This document shows positions 26,064 through 53,143 of a DNA stretch of 64,000 nucleotides, one piece after another. Every line of letters starts with the position of its first letter. The stretch's first letter is position 1. Position numbers and translations under genes: made by a program. The stretch covers positions 28,778-92,777 of the forward strand of contig CAYHDI010000001.1 of NCBI GenBank assembly GCA_964355645.1, read 5' to 3'. The notes under the pieces are model-generated. The model was not told the origin of the DNA and did no database searches. It was given only the letters and a program-made list of their open reading frames with translations. This DNA is from an uncultured Candidatus Saccharibacteria bacterium (lineage in GTDB: Bacteria; Patescibacteriota; Minisyncoccia; Phycocordibacterales; Zambryskibacteraceae).

Positions 26064-27137
26064 TTATGGCAAATCCCTAACAAATTTTTTATATCTATGA
26101 ATCAAACTTCGCATGCTTTGTGATTTTGTATGAGATAAATGGCCTAAATATGAAGAAAAGGATTGATTGAATTCTCCTTTTGTTGATTTTCCATTTTGTA
26201 AGTTATAAGTCATTTTTCCTAACTTTTTTTGTATTCTTTTTTTAGTTTTAGTTCTAGGCACAACGTGATAAGGCATTGCAACGGCTCCTAAAAAATCTAC
26301 ACCTTGGAGAAACGAACGGATACTAACCTTACTTGGATGTAATTCGAGCTTTAAATGTTCTATTAAAAACTTTTGTATAGGATAGATAAATAGATTCAAT
26401 TTTTCACGACTCGAATCAAGGATAACAAAATCATCGCAGTATCTAATGTAATTTTTACTTATTTTGGTTTTAATAAACCAATCAAACTTGTTCATGTATA
26501 CATTAGCGAAAAGCTGACTGGTAACATTACCGAGAGGTAAACCCTTCCCTGATATTTTATGAAAGGTATCAATTATCTTCGCCAATAAATCTAAGGTTTT
26601 CTTGCATTCAATTTTTTCTTTTAGGAGATTATTTAAAATATTGTGGTTAATTGAATCAAAAAACTTTCGTATATCACACTTGAGCGCATAGGTCTGACCT
26701 GTGTAGTTTCGACTGATTTTTCGAGACATTTTGACAAGTCTATCTATACCTGCATGAGTACCCTTGCCCGTTCTACTAGCATACGAATCAAAAATAAAAT
26801 CATTATCAAAAATTGGATACAAAACCTGATGGATGGCTTGATACAAAACCCTATCTCGAACTGAGGCTTTATGAATCTTTCTTGGTTTTGGATCACGAAT
26901 AGAAAAAGATGTATATCCATCACATGTCCATTGTCCTGAAATTAGTTCTTTTTGAAGCCCAAAAATGTTATTCTCAAGATTGAGAGAAAAATTTACAATA
27001 TCAAGTTTTTTGTTTTTGTTTTTTTTGAATTCTCGCCAAGCGAAAAATAAATTCTCGAGCGAAATAATTTTATGGAAAATACTTCTATCAAGACCCCCCC
27101 CCCCAACGGTATTTTGGTGGCTCCGATTATCGTTCAT
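26064..27137 (-). CDS. DGR-type reverse transcriptase (first ATG 27137; ORF track start 27143 is TTG)
   Basis: RT domains with LPLGNVTSQ (DGR-specific I/LGxxxSQ motif 4) and YCDDFVIL (YxDD); no maturase/endonuclease domains; N-terminal GGGG encoded by (G)11 tract. Confidence 0.88.
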   Translation of the reverse strand: MNDNRSHQNTVGGGGLDRSIFHKIISLENLFFAWREFKKNKNKKLDIVNFSLNLENNIFGLQKELISGQWTCDGYTSFSIRDPKPRKIHKASVRDRVLYQAIHQVLYPIFDNDFIFDSYASRTGKGTHAGIDRLVKMSRKISRNYTGQTYALKCDIRKFFDSINHNILNNLLKEKIECKKTLDLLAKIIDTFHKISGKGLPLGNVTSQLFANVYMNKFDWFIKTKISKNYIRYCDDFVILDSSREKLNLFIYPIQKFLIEHLKLELHPSKVSIRSFLQGVDFLGAVAMPYHVVPRTKTKKRIQKKLGKMTYNLQNGKSTKGEFNQSFSSYLGHLSHTKSQSMRSLIHRYKKFVRDLP

Positions 27138-27461
27138 GTGCAAAAATTATATCAGGAATTATACATAATCGCCGAACAAATTCCGAAGCGAGATAAGCTT
27201 GGCCTACATGCCGAGATTGAGAAAACTTGTATCAAAACACTCTCACTCTGTATTCAGGCATCACTGGCTTCTAAAGGTGACAAATTTTCTTTAATTCGTG
27301 ATATAAGAGTATTAATAGAAACAATGAAATACCTTATTCGCGTTTCTCATGAACTTTTAATCATTAATCAGAAAAAATATATTTCTTTGGAATCAAAACT
27401 GCAGGAAATTTCTAAGATGGCTAACGGGTGGGAGAGATATGCAACAAACAATCCCGCTTAA
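27072..27461 (+). CDS. avd: Avd-like accessory variability determinant (four-helix-bundle, TIGR02436-like), antisense to RT; possibly starts at GTG 27112
   Basis: IPKRDKLGL...KY...L.EI.KM.NGW pattern of Avd/four-helix-bundle family; (C)11 tract 27094-27104 in N-terminal codons. Confidence 0.7.
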   Translation: MENTSIKTPPPNGILVAPIIVHVQKLYQELYIIAEQIPKRDKLGLHAEIEKTCIKTLSLCIQASLASKGDKFSLIRDIRVLIETMKYLIRVSHELLIINQKKYISLESKLQEISKMANGWERYATNNPA

Positions 27462-27482
27462 GCGGGATTGTTGTAAAACTTC

Positions 27483-27590
27483 GGGAACCGAGGTTCGAAT
27501 TGCGATTCGTCGGAGCGTACCAGTTCACGTTCGACTTGTCGTCGTTCCAGTTCGCGTTCGGCACGTTGCCATTCGAATTGCGAGAACCTC
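27483..27590 (-). repeat. DGR1 template repeat (TR)
   Basis: 108-nt match to VR 27833-27940; ~17 of 18 differences at TR adenines (minus strand); TR ORF is Asn-rich. Confidence 0.85.
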
Positions 27591-27763
27591 CGTTGCTCTC
27601 CTCCGTCCGTATCACCGAAAGACGTTTGCCTTTCTGCGTTTATGAATTTCTCGCGGTACTCTCGAGCGTTGTGTTGAAGAAAGCAAGCAGTTTTGTTTTA
27701 TTGCGATAAATTGTTATTCAAAAGAATCAATTAAACAATCGCGTAAATATTATATATGAAAAT

Positions 27764-27790
27764 CCGCCAAGCACACGAGGTGCTTGGCGG
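27764..27790 (-). promoter_or_regulatory. GC hairpin CCGCCAAGCAC-ACGAG-GTGCTTGGCGG ~30 nt 3' of VR1, preceded by conserved TTATATGAAAATC; DGR homing-associated stem-loop candidate
   Basis: perfect 11-bp stem; equivalent motif+hairpin at DGR2. Confidence 0.6.
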
Positions 27791-27816
27791 AGGGTTAAAG
27801 AGAAAAGATGCAAGGT

Positions 27817-28524
27817 TTAGACACAAACCCTGCGGGAACCGAGGTGCGAATCGCGACTCGTCGGAGCGTACCAGCCCACGCCCGACTTGCCGCCGCCCCC
27901 GTACGCGCCCGGCACGTCGCCACTCGAATCGCGAGAACCTGAATTGAGTGTCCAGGTCTGGCGGTCGGGATGGTGGCCGTGCTTCAGGAAATACATCGCC
28001 GAGAACAGCGCGTACTCGAGATGAGTCGATGTCTTGATGCCCATCTCGGCGATTTGGTTCGCCGATTTGTTCATCAGATTCTCGTCCGGGGTTTCCGAGT
28101 CGAGCATCAGCACGACGTACGAATCATTCCCGGGATTGCGCTCGTCCTTGTGGGTCGGAATGGCAAGATCGAGGGAGTCGCTCGTGTACTTCCAACACGG
28201 GAAGAGTTTCTTCCGAGCTTGGAACACGTCCTCCTTCGGTTCGCCATTCGTCCACTCGACGAGCTCGCGCATCATGGGTACCGCGAGGTACTGCCGAGCA
28301 TCCGGGGCCCGCGGGATGAAAAGGTTCGAGAAGTCCAGGGCCTTGCCGAAGAGCTTTTCGTACAACACCGACATGAACGAAACGTCGATGTTGCTGTCAA
28401 CCACTTGCGTGGCGACAGCAACCTTCTTCACCAGAGCGTCCCGAAGACGCCGAGCGAGAAGCGAAGGATTGCTGATGTAGCGCTGTTGCTCCTTCGTTGT
28501 GAGAAGTGGCAACTGCGCGAGCAC
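27817..28524 (-). CDS. DGR1 target (variable) protein; VR at 27833-27940 encodes C-terminal CLec-like NSGSRDSSGDVPGAYGGGGKSGVGWYAPTSRDSHLGSRRV
   Basis: VR/TR pairing; GC-rich gene; no signal peptide evident. Confidence 0.8.
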   Translation of the reverse strand: MLAQLPLLTTKEQQRYISNPSLLARRLRDALVKKVAVATQVVDSNIDVSFMSVLYEKLFGKALDFSNLFIPRAPDARQYLAVPMMRELVEWTNGEPKEDVFQARKKLFPCWKYTSDSLDLAIPTHKDERNPGNDSYVVLMLDSETPDENLMNKSANQIAEMGIKTSTHLEYALFSAMYFLKHGHHPDRQTWTLNSGSRDSSGDVPGAYGGGGKSGVGWYAPTSRDSHLGSRRVCV

Positions 28525-30197: not shown

Positions 30198-30273
30198 GCG
30201 GGATTAGCTCAGTTGGTAGAGCAGTCGCTTTACACGCGGATGGTCACAGGTTCGAGTCCTGTATCCCGCACCA
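30198..30273 (+). tRNA. tRNA-Val (anticodon TAC), CCA encoded
   Basis: manual cloverleaf; acceptor GCGGGAT/ATCCCGC; loop TTTACAC. Confidence 0.85.
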
Positions 30274-30281
30274 AACCAAGT

Positions 30282-30365
30282 GCCGAGGTGGTGAAATCGG
30301 TAGACACGCAGCGTTCAGAACGCTGTCACCGCAAGGTGGTAGGAGTTCAAGTCTCCTCCTCGGCA
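30282..30365 (+). tRNA. tRNA-Leu (anticodon CAG), long variable arm
   Basis: acceptor GCCGAGG/CCTCGGC; anticodon loop TTCAGAA. Confidence 0.8.
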
Positions 30366-30390
30366 CAAAAATGTGTTAATTTGAATGCAC

Positions 30391-30462
30391 GTCCTCGTAG
30401 CTTAATGGATAAAGCAGTGCTCTTCTAAGGCATTGATGCAGGTTCGATTCCTGCCGAGGACA
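30391..30462 (+). tRNA. tRNA-Arg (anticodon TCT)
   Basis: acceptor GTCCTCG/CGAGGAC; loop CTTCTAA; T-loop TTCGATT. Confidence 0.8.
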
Positions 30463-50855: not shown

Positions 50856-51279
50856 ATTCAATACTCCTCGCATTATCTCCCAAGTGCCCAAAGAAAATTT
50901 TCTTCGCCTCGTTTGGAATAATTCCTTGCACTTTTTCTGGCCATTCAATGAGAATTAAATTCTCTGGTTCTTGAATTATTTCCTCCCAGCCCAAATGTAG
51001 AAGTTCTGAATCTTTTTCCAACCTATACGCATCAATATGAATCAAGTTTTTGAAACCTTGAAAATCAATCGGGTAAATTTTCTCTATTACAAATGTCGGG
51101 CTTTGCATTGTTTCCTTCACTCCTAAAAAACTTCCAACCGCTTGAGAAAACGCCGTCTTGCCCGAACCGAGCTCTCCAGCAAGCGCAACTACGACGGCTC
51201 GGTCCCCAGATTTTAATCCTTCTATAAACCCCCGTGCCACTTCGCCCGTCTCCTCCAGACTCTTAGAAATATGCTTCAT
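50845..51279 (-). CDS. tsaE: tRNA threonylcarbamoyladenosine biosynthesis ATPase TsaE
   Basis: GELGSGKT Walker A. Confidence 0.85.
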   Translation of the reverse strand: MKHISKSLEETGEVARGFIEGLKSGDRAVVVALAGELGSGKTAFSQAVGSFLGVKETMQSPTFVIEKIYPIDFQGFKNLIHIDAYRLEKDSELLHLGWEEIIQEPENLILIEWPEKVQGIIPNEAKKIFFGHLGDNARSIEYED

Positions 51280-51698
51280 TTCTCTATTGTACCATTTTGA
51301 GCTTCTGGTGCTCTAAGGATTGTTTGAGTAAGTTTATTTGTATTCCCGTGTTTCAACAGCCCTAAATAGGACTGGGTGGTTTCTTGGTTATTTTGGCTAT
51401 CTTTGAGTCTTTTAAACATTCTATTTTTTGTACTAGTTCTCAAAATTCTATAATCAGAAAAATGTACCCACCCCAGAAAATCAATACCTGAAACTAGGGT
51501 TTTAATGGAAACTTTGTTTGGATGTAATTCAAGTTTAAGAATCTGGTTTAGATAACATACGATATATCGCATGTTAAGCATAAGATAATTTTTGTTTTGA
51601 AAGAACTTTCGCACATCACATTTCAATACCCAACATTGTTTTGTGTTGTTCTTGGAAACTTTGTATGAAAATTCTCTAAACCTGTTCATATGATACAT
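51276..51698 (-). pseudogene. degenerate DGR reverse transcriptase remnant (140 aa; lacks domains 1-2 and motifs 4/5 incl. YxDD)
   Basis: N-terminus ~RT1 FAWREFKK fused to ALKCDIRKFF region; C-terminus ~RT1 thumb (LELHPNKVSI...GIDFLGW). Confidence 0.7.
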
Positions 51699-52076
51699 AA
51701 TATCGCGACCCCCCCCCCCGCAAAAGCACCCGAGGTGCTTTTTAAGGGAAGAGCAACTTATAAATATTGGCTTCAGTTATATAAACAATTTCGGAAACCA
51801 GAACGTTTTGGACTCGGTGAAAAAATAGATACACTGTTTCTAGAGGTATTAGAACTTATCTATACAGCAATCTATTTAGAAACATCAGCGAAAATACCAA
51901 AACTTGAGCTCGCTATTCTTAAATTAGACAGAATAAAATTGTTCTCTGAAATTGCTTGGGAAAATAAACTGATACTCACAGATAAATACACTCTTTTTCT
52001 AACACAACTTCAAGAAATCGGCAGGCAACTTTCCGGTTGGAAGAAAAGTTTGATAACAAAAACTTCCACCCTATAA
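51690..52076 (+). CDS. avd: Avd-like four-helix-bundle protein (paralog of 27072-27461), (C)11 at 51709-51719
   Basis: RKPERFGL...KY...L.EI....SGW pattern; ATG overlaps RT-remnant ATG in CATATGATACATATG. Confidence 0.7.
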   Translation: MIHNIATPPPAKAPEVLFKGRATYKYWLQLYKQFRKPERFGLGEKIDTLFLEVLELIYTAIYLETSAKIPKLELAILKLDRIKLFSEIAWENKLILTDKYTLFLTQLQEIGRQLSGWKKSLITKTSTL

Positions 52077-52100
52077 AAAGCGGAAGAAAATATATAGTTT

Positions 52101-52210
52101 CGGAAAAGTACCACGTTCTCGGCATTCCAACGATTCGAGTTCTCGAGCTTGTTGACGTTCACGTTCCAGCCATTCGAGTTCCGGTTCACGTTGAGAAAGA
52201 ACACTGACGC
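52101..52210 (-). repeat. DGR2 template repeat (TR)
   Basis: 110-nt match to VR 52491-52600 with ~26 differences, all but one at TR adenines (minus strand); Asn-rich TR ORF. Confidence 0.85.
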
Positions 52211-52412
52211 TTTTGTACAACAAGCCATCTATGCCACTACCCCTTGATCACTCTCGAGGTTGTATCGTATTCGGAATCTCTATTCCTTAGTTTGTTATAC
52301 CAACTGTTTATTTTTTTGTGAGTCGTGACTTACGACTCGAGCCCACCACACTAAGCGTAACAGCGAAGTGTGCCAGTGTAGCCTGATTTTATTATATGAA
52401 AATCGGGTGACT

Positions 52413-52438
52413 CTTGCGAGTCACCCGAGTAGTTTTGT
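52413..52438 (-). promoter_or_regulatory. GC hairpin TCGGGTGACTC-TTGC-GAGTCACCCGA preceded by TTATATGAAAATC, ~45 nt 3' of target2 stop
   Basis: perfect 11-bp stem; same arrangement as DGR1. Confidence 0.6.
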
Positions 52439-52483
52439 TTCTGGCCCAGATCAGAAGTGACCAAGGGTCAAAGAGACAGAGGT

Positions 52484-53143
52484 TCAGTTGCGGAAAAGTA
52501 CCACGCCCCCGGCACGCCAACGATTCGAGAACTCGAGCCTGAGGACGAACACGCGCCAGCCAAGCGAGCGCAGGTACACGTCGAGAAAGAACACCGACGC
52601 TCCATCGAAGATGGGAACCAAGTTCGCCCAACCGTCCGTGCGGAGGTGGAAGGGGTTCTCACCCCGGTCACAAGCAACGAGCATGTCGTCGACCTGCTTG
52701 GGAGAGAAACACTTGCCACACTCGACGAGCGTCCCCGCGACAAGATCGAGATTCTTCTCGATGCCGAGGTGCTCGACGGACATCTCAATGAAGTTCATCT
52801 CTGCACCGAGCTGGTAACTCGACGCACGACCTTCGATCATCGCCGGCACGGACTTCCGAAGCCAGTTGTCTAGATCTCCATCACGGTAAACGATGTGCTT
52901 ACCGCGGAAGAGATCCTTGGTCTTGCACTCGCCGACTGCTTGTACGGTGATGTTCGTGGCGAGAGCGATGAGGCTGGCAACGACTGCCTTGAAGCGGTTC
53001 TTGATCGCCTCACCCCAAAGTCTGATGGCTTCGACGGTATTCTGAATCGCCCACTGTGCATCCTCATTCGAGAACTCACGGATGGACGACTGGTGTTCGA
53101 CCACGAGGCCAGCGAGCTTGTACTGCTGTTGTTCGGTTGCCAT
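52484..53143 (-). CDS. DGR2 target protein; VR 52491-52600 at C-terminus (...NRWRAGGVVLFRN)
   Basis: VR/TR pairing; GC-rich. Confidence 0.8.
   Translation of the reverse strand: MATEQQQYKLAGLVVEHQSSIREFSNEDAQWAIQNTVEAIRLWGEAIKNRFKAVVASLIALATNITVQAVGECKTKDLFRGKHIVYRDGDLDNWLRKSVPAMIEGRASSYQLGAEMNFIEMSVEHLGIEKNLDLVAGTLVECGKCFSPKQVDDMLVACDRGENPFHLRTDGWANLVPIFDGASVFFLDVYLRSLGWRVFVLRLEFSNRWRAGGVVLFRN

Follow-up and report, generated by a model that had tools for sequence, protein, structure and literature searches.

A window of 64,000 nucleotides (nt) from an uncultured Candidatus Saccharibacteria bacterium (contig CAYHDI010000001.1, positions 28,778 to 92,777) carries two diversity-generating retroelement (DGR) cassettes, and in both of them the accessory gene avd bears a run of 11 cytosines near its start. 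At locus 1, the run lies in the overlap between the 5′ ends of avd1 and of the reverse transcriptase (RT) gene on the opposite strand. Comparison with related loci suggests that it is a conserved contingency tract that reversibly frameshifts the RT and, in most lineages, Avd, a reading to which we assign a probability of roughly 0.6.

RT and avd are divergently transcribed genes whose 5′ coding ends overlap by 30-70 nt, and the G/C run in this overlap, lying past both ATGs, by its length sets the frame of the RT and of ATG-initiated Avd together. In the mechanism proposed, slipped-strand mispairing would make the tract hypermutable. A gain or loss of 1-2 bp would leave an RT of <50 amino acids (aa) and an Avd of ~30-40 aa, a further slip would restore both frames, and a change of 3 bp would mean one Gly/Pro more or less. 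The tract would work as a contingency locus that turns adenine-directed hypermutation ON and OFF in a heritable and reversible way, and a single tract would couple RT and Avd, two proteins required to act as a complex. We infer that replication slippage, occurring at a high rate within populations, is the source of the length changes, and that the cells use the switch as a regulator.

Tracts, avd genes and reverse transcriptases in the window

Tract 1, which is (C)11 on the plus strand and (G)11 on the minus strand, occupies positions 27094-27104, within the 66 nt over which the 5′ ends of avd1 and RT1 overlap. It codes for PPP in Avd1 and for GGGG in RT1 in one shared codon register, and its site corresponds to codons 8-11 of avd1 (T-P-P-P). 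Tract 2, likewise (C)11/(G)11, is located at 51709-51719 and covers codons 7-10 of avd2; read along the minus strand, it precedes the first ATG of the RT2 remnant by 11 nt. No other homopolymer in the window, which has a G+C content of 41.5%, exceeds 8 nt. An earlier reading of the window from its letters alone (the sequence-only reading) had placed both PPP-coding runs near the avd starts and GGGG opposite tract 1, and these were confirmed in place. It had also taken the tract length to be genuine, and the strain of the window does show C11 at tract 1 in three assemblies from independent runs, which rules out sequencing error as the source of the tract. The junction of locus 2, for which the palindrome CATATGATACATATG had been given, actually reads CATATGATACATAAT. 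In a Hainich H52 contig of locus 2, the positions equal to 51709-51719 of the window (L134:690-700) read CCCCCCCACCC (C7-A-C3); this C>A change is synonymous, breaks the tract and would stabilise the in-frame state, and at 2x coverage it may be an error.

The plus-strand genes avd1 (27072-27461) and avd2 (51690-52076) encode 129 aa from ATG 27072 and 128 aa from ATG 51690, respectively. Both lie above the gathering score of the Pfam bAvd family (PF22296; score 40), with 57.1 bits for avd1 and 41.3 bits for avd2, so the identification of these reading frames as Avd stands. The NCBIfam model DivGenRetAVD (NF033474) matched them with E-values of 4.6e-16 and 3.5e-16, respectively, at 59 bits against an equivalog cut-off of 80, and Avd1 and Avd2 are therefore regarded as family members and not as strict equivalogs.

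RT1 (26064-27137, minus strand) encodes a DGR reverse transcriptase of 357 aa from ATG 27137, with an RVT_1 match of 87.3 bits and the motifs LGNVTSQ and YCDD in its translation, and public records hold the protein, also called at 357 aa. The reading frame is open back to TTG 27143; judged by homologs, the start is most likely ATG 27137 (MNDNR...) rather than this TTG. From ATG 27137, the overlap with avd1 amounts to 66 nt, close to the ~65 nt reported previously. Between the G tract and the ENLFFAWREF motif of RT1, no in-frame start was found. RT1 carries all the marks of a DGR-type RT (RVT_1, [LIV]GxxxSQ and YxDD), while the RT2 reading frame (51276-51698, minus strand, 140 aa) does not: it has no Pfam match and aligns by BLASTP to residues 133-171 and about 216-350 of RT1 only, keeping motif A and the thumb, with the N-terminal fingers (130 residues) and the YxDD region deleted. 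By its alignment, RT2 is a deleted remnant and not a working RT.

Locus 1 of the window is in the ON state, with C11 and both genes in frame. As computed for this locus, a change of +/-1 or +/-2 would leave only 15-48 aa of RT1 and, when Avd1 starts at its ATG, 31-41 aa of Avd1, whereas +/-3 would merely add or remove one Gly/Pro. At locus 2 the RT is lost, and tract 2 lies outside any ATG-initiated RT2 reading frame, the RT2 ATG being downstream of the G tract; the frame changes computed for RT2 are disregarded for this reason. Since RT2 is a deleted remnant, tract 2 can gate Avd2 alone. The proposal that a change of one nucleotide shifts RT and Avd simultaneously thus holds at locus 1, where both are truncated, but not at locus 2. 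Locus 2 retains an intact Avd2 together with a template repeat (TR2) and a variable region (VR2) that show adenine-specific differences, and it presumably relies in trans on RT1, 25 kb away.

Tract conservation and start codons in related loci

Related loci (given L numbers) were fetched via aligned Avd1 homologs, 51 from GTDB genomes and 80 from JGI metagenomes, and all those with named hosts come from Patescibacteria, the tiny groundwater bacteria of the Candidate Phyla Radiation (CPR), across many lineages. A C run of at least 6 nt was found at the same position in 99 unique loci after removal of duplicates, with lengths of 6 (3 loci), 7 (3), 8 (9), 9 (47), 10 (22), 11 (11), 12 (2), 13 (1) and 15 nt (1) and a mode of C9. 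The tract site is a few codons ahead of the conserved 'APII.H' segment of Avd and, on the other strand, directly before the conserved RT N-terminus (..IF..IISLENLF.AW.EF..GK), and the tract is still present in loci whose Avd is only ~30% identical to that of the window. Among G/C runs of at least 8 nt in 485 kb of related loci, 106 were junction tracts and 5 were located elsewhere, and a chance origin of the junction tracts is excluded. One locus harbors added C11 and G15 runs (L019:2792-2825) ~170-190 nt from a C13 junction tract, and its RT frame is open for just 45 codons past the tract.

The strong conservation of tract position would also suit a cis-acting element, in which the G run acts in the TR-spacer RNA bound by RT-Avd, as a processing or priming signal or as a G-rich structure, while its coding effects are incidental. 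The run does lie on the TR strand, ~375 nt past TR1, and a single transcript extending through to the RT would include it along with the TR. We consider this explanation extremely unlikely, as tract length ranges from 6 to 15, complete cassettes are kept in relatives without a tract, and a long distance separates the run from the 3′ end of the TR, the site at which the spacer of the Bordetella phage acts. In addition, no Rfam family or other RNA signal was found at either DGR of the window. A role of the tract as promoter spacer was likewise unsupported, since it is downstream of both ATGs.

In all 83 evaluable related loci, the RT is divergent from avd. A canonical in-frame start between the G run and the RT motif ENLF.AW.EF..GK is missing from almost every locus, so RT translation must begin upstream and read through the run; an RT start downstream of the tract, including one with the G run as a Shine-Dalgarno mimic, was ruled out on this ground. 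Many loci possess an in-frame RT ATG 19-45 nt upstream of the G run, the RT start often being 'M[ND][ND]R', which corresponds in reverse complement to the conserved His codon of Avd, and in nearly all loci an Avd ATG precedes the C run by 3-30 nt. Some sublineages (L001, L004, L055, L068 and others) have another RT ATG, in a different register (M[IT]GAT...), on the minus strand 26 nt upstream of the G run, which places the RT in frame for two of the three length classes and ATG-initiated Avd for one. Some relatives lack the tract (L015/L108/L112, L029, L020, L025, L111, L042 and L045). In these, both genes start with ATG, the 5′ ends overlap by 30-42 nt in all but L045, and ordinary residues stand at the tract site, e.g., SPP opposite GRR.

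The start codon of Avd matters for what the tract would control. In the sublineage of the window, the tract might gate RT1 alone, with Avd1 starting at TTG 27114 or GTG 27117, Avd2 starting at GTG 51735 and the PPP leader outside the functional Avd protein. These codons are in frame, whereas the GTG at 27112 named in the sequence-only reading is replaced by TTG 27114 and GTG 27117; codon 16 is an in-frame GTG in both avd copies, and several public gene calls of close homologs begin 'MAPII...' at this codon. The profile matches to Avd also begin past the tract, at residues 18-24 (18 in avd1). However, L004/L068 have GTA at the codon in question, no canonical start stands between the run and the Avd core in 42 of the 53 loci with Avd out of frame, the Avd of tract-less relatives starts at the upstream ATG, and no clear Shine-Dalgarno sequence precedes either candidate start. 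An Avd start past the tract, which had been raised earlier, is thus available as an in-frame TTG/GTG in the sublineage of the window but not in most other sublineages, and control of RT1 alone is considered possible but less likely than not in this sublineage.

Reading frames, length polymorphism and variable-region turnover

The frames of the 83 evaluable tract loci are distributed as 28 with both genes in frame, 41 with neither, 12 with the RT only and 2 with Avd only, the RT-only class working via the second ATG in another register. The Avd leader falls into frames 0/+1/+2 in 30/35/16 loci. Though 43 loci have the RT out of frame, 41 of these contain complete RT bodies, and all 41 bodies are uninterrupted (at least 316 codons, with a median of 337 vs 339 in the in-frame set), which rules out that the out-of-frame loci are pseudogenes. 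Both genes are in frame in 7/7 tract-less sequences (about 4 lineages), and the in-frame state differs between tract-bearing and tract-less loci with Fisher p = 9e-4 by sequence and 0.016 by lineage.

Differences in tract length were also observed directly on identical backgrounds. No mismatch separates L010 (C9) from L110 (C6) over 3369 nt, L059 (C10) from L066 (C9) over 3349 nt, or L023 (C9, both genes OFF) from L115/L117 (C8, both ON) over 2349 nt. Similar length differences were found at 99.1% identity between L114 (C8, ON) and L122/L125 (C9, OFF) and at 96% identity between L073 (C10, ON) and L087 (C11, OFF), and tract length was discordant in 5 of 16 replicate groups. Relatives of the strain of the window have C8, in frame (L136), and C10 (L135, a 1x contig and hence weak evidence). 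Out-of-frame lengths repeat across independent assemblies (L082/L083/L085, L122/L125, L005/L070, L018/L127 and L003/L065, the last at 65x), so they represent real consensus states and not random miscalls. The loci show two features of a contingency locus, namely a run of at least ~8 nt between start and gene body and length polymorphism on identical backgrounds that alters the frame of an otherwise intact gene. The slipped-strand role that the sequence-only reading gave to the tract is supported by these comparisons: lengths vary on identical backgrounds, frames are near random with intact bodies, and no relative without the tract is out of frame.

Of 40 left-truncated contigs, 13 break off no more than 130 nt from the Avd core, against 4 of 48 on the other side of avd. 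Such a pile-up of contig ends at the tract would be expected from length heterogeneity at the read level or from a drop in coverage, and gives a hint of one or the other. Assembly breaks at the tract were seen in L034:1-15, L106 and L121, whose 5′ ends start within or right after the run, and in L012:2941-2950 an N-run abuts C10.

It could be argued that the tract has no regulatory role and is a by-product of dual coding, with the out-of-frame loci explained by miscalls in assembly or by DGRs that died recently. A pure C/G run is indeed imposed in register 0, where CCN faces GGN, homopolymers are prone to sequencing error, and some of the variants come from 1-2x contigs. Dual coding, however, accounts poorly for lengths that are not multiples of 3 and for the 55 of 83 loci that are out of frame for at least one gene, and PPP/GGG is not required, as tract-less relatives tolerate SPP/GRR and other residues. 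Miscalls do not explain OFF lengths that recur in independent assemblies, up to 65x, and dead DGRs do not explain either the intact RT bodies or a VR turnover that continues in OFF lineages. We regard this explanation as very unlikely.

The related DGRs are active, as the substitutions between samples are restricted to VRs, at TR adenines. All of the substitutions between L008 and L077 (8/8) and between L115 and L117 (7/7) are located in the VR at TR adenines. L122 and L125 differ by 21 mismatches in 2527 nt, all in the VR and 19 of them at TR adenines, and between L114 and L122, 20 of 21 mismatches are in the VR, with 19 of those 20 at TR adenines. L018 and L127 differ by 32 mismatches, all within a second VR; this second TR-matching VR (L018:252-453) lies beyond the RT 3′ end, and the two loci are otherwise identical. 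The consensus sequences of L122/L125 and L018/L127 are out of frame, and A-specific VR change in these pairs means that OFF loci are not dead. VR turnover was found in ON and consensus-OFF lineages alike and does not separate switching from recoding. In the own strain of the window, the three assemblies are identical, the VR included. In the Portnoybacteria metagenome-assembled genome L023, the VR (L023:3801-3940) consists of 140 N, while L115 and L117 hold two different VRs there; the VR of L023 was evidently too heterogeneous to assemble, or masked. A second VR was also suspected in unaligned blocks of L082/L083/L085:2660-2860, which proved to be 54-nt and ~118-nt deletions in the target gene outside the VR of otherwise identical loci.

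Recoding is the main rival account of these data. RNA polymerase, or tRNA-Pro/tRNA-Gly at CCC-C/GGG-G, would slip and yield some in-frame RT and Avd at any tract length, so that the tract fixes a low, frame-independent expression while its DNA length drifts neutrally. This would suit the near-random frames (30/35/16, with 34% of loci having both genes in) beside 41/41 intact RT bodies in complete out-of-frame copies, as well as the recent A-specific VR change in consensus-OFF lineages. The modal C9-C10 is close in length to the RNA:DNA hybrid that a polymerase contains during elongation, and the excess of the '+1 nt' class (35 loci) over the '+2 nt' class (16) fits a +1 shift at CCC-C, where tRNA-Pro is known for +1 shifting. 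On the other hand, transcriptional slippage in bacteria is on record mainly at A/T runs, and DNA length changes on identical backgrounds were seen directly, so switching occurs regardless. Recoding as the main explanation is considered rather unlikely, and recoding and switching are not exclusive.

Several points weigh against a reversible frameshift switch. The share of loci with both genes ON (34%) equals the expectation for neutral drift in tract length, and no selection for either tract state was seen at the consensus level in the 83 loci. The VR change in the OFF lineages L122/L125 and L018/L127 needs switching as rapid as the VR turnover itself or a bypass of the frameshift. The strain of the window has C11 in three assemblies, with the sole C10 variant coming from a 1x contig, and the TTG/GTG codons just past the tract could make Avd tract-independent in this sublineage. 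Moreover, the support for a switch comes from comparison of assembly consensus sequences, and some length calls from low-coverage metagenome assemblies could be wrong. Whether the tract is a clade-wide switch of Patescibacteria DGRs, in which one bidirectional G/C run would stochastically and heritably co-regulate RT and avd by a single slippage, is to us an evenly balanced proposition.

Cassette features and comparison with known systems

Repeat searches located, all on the minus strand, TR1 at 27475-27637 (ungapped core 27479-27589) and VR1 at 27826-27985 (core 27830-27940), at the 3′ end of a target gene (27817-28524), and TR2 at 52083-52211 and VR2 at 52473-52601, at the 3′ end of a second target gene (52484-53143). 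The core of DGR1 shows 20 TR/VR mismatches at TR adenines, and DGR2 shows 24 of 31 mismatches at TR adenines, with the remaining ones at the 3′ edge. This concentration at TR adenines indicates that both loci carry genuine DGR repeat pairs. Neither target protein (both minus strand) has a Pfam or NCBIfam match.

A perfect 26-nt palindrome (27447-27472), capable of forming a hairpin, spans the avd1 stop codon directly 3′ of TR1 on the minus strand, and might terminate transcription in both directions or belong to the TR-spacer RNA; the Avd C-termini of homologs (..NSPQGELL) appear to encode a comparable GC hairpin. Further GC-rich hairpins at 27763-27791 (12-bp stem) and 52403-52428 (11-bp stem), 26-55 nt downstream of the target genes/VRs, resemble the inverted repeat downstream of the initiation of mutagenic homing (IMH) sequence in other DGRs. 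A promoter and terminator scan at the junction was uninformative, with 3 promoter-like sites vs 2.0 expected. The Rfam scan of the whole window returned tRNAs only, comprising a three-tRNA cluster at 30198-30462 (plus strand), ~2 kb from DGR1, and five further tRNAs scattered in the window.

In both loci, all the cassette parts except avd (target-VR, TR and RT) are on the minus strand, and avd lies on the opposite strand between TR and RT. The sequence-only reading had held this antisense avd to be non-canonical, yet Wu et al. 2018 (PMC5758913) had already described it as architecture B3, TR-(avd)-RT, in which avd runs on the reverse strand, and they report it for 90% of CPR DGRs. The cassettes of the window belong to this class, whose counterpart in Roux et al. 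2021 (PMC8144416) is RT clade 2, restricted to Patescibacteria. They share with it the order target-VR, TR, reverse-strand avd and RT, a bAvd-family gene, an RT with [LIV]GxxxSQ and YxDD, A-specific TR/VR differences and Patescibacteria hosts. The searchable text of both papers does not describe the RT/avd 5′ overlap or a homopolymer in it, and homopolymer and phase-variation terms are absent there. According to the latter study, the apparent activity of clade 2 DGRs is significantly lower than average (PMC8144416), which is circumstantially consistent with many populations being OFF.

The tract state might serve as a simple predictor of DGR activity, checkable in existing metagenomes. In assemblies, roughly two thirds of these RT/avd genes have the appearance of a frameshift, which puts them at risk of being misannotated or discarded as pseudogenes. 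An unrestrained DGR keeps rewriting a protein and could yield promiscuous cDNA, and to our knowledge, how cells restrain a DGR is largely unknown and no regulation has been known for CPR DGRs. If real, the proposed switch would give DGRs their first described element of genetic control, and phase variation would control hypermutation, one mutational bet-hedging device acting on another, in the DGR-rich CPR bacteria. Evolvability itself would then be phase-variable, which would account for the low apparent activity of this DGR clade.

The Bordetella phage BPP-1 DGR (mtd-VR, avd, TR, brt) shares with the cassettes of the window the RT and Avd, the TR/VR pair, adenine mutagenesis and a GC hairpin downstream of the VR, which here corresponds to the hairpins noted above. 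In BPP-1, however, avd is co-directional and upstream of the TR, with neither gene overlap nor homopolymer, and we know of no genetic ON/OFF switch in that cassette. Programmed slippage and +1 frameshifting (Thermus dnaX, Shigella mxiE, endosymbiont poly(A) rescue and tRNA-Pro at CCC-C) resemble the present loci in the long run between start codon and body and in the intact bodies of out-of-frame genomic copies; those cases mainly involve A/T runs of fixed genomic length, whereas here the DNA length varies.

A search of literature full text found no link of DGRs with homopolymers, slipped-strand mispairing, contingency loci or phase variation, though a prior mention in Paul et al. 2017 (Nat Microbiol) is possible. 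The intragenic poly-G/poly-C contingency loci of Campylobacter, Neisseria, Haemophilus and Mycobacterium, which bring about translational phase variation, have in common with these loci a G/C run, 8-11 nt long and situated towards the 5′ end of the reading frame, isogenic length polymorphism, frameshifted yet intact genes and a modal length of 9-10. The present loci differ from them in that a single tract is shared by two genes that overlap and diverge on opposite strands, that the function gated would be a mutagenesis machine and not a surface or restriction-modification function, and that the hosts are uncultivated CPR bacteria. What appears to be new is a single clade-conserved homopolymer placed where the 5′ ends of two divergent genes overlap, from where it would gate hypermutation.

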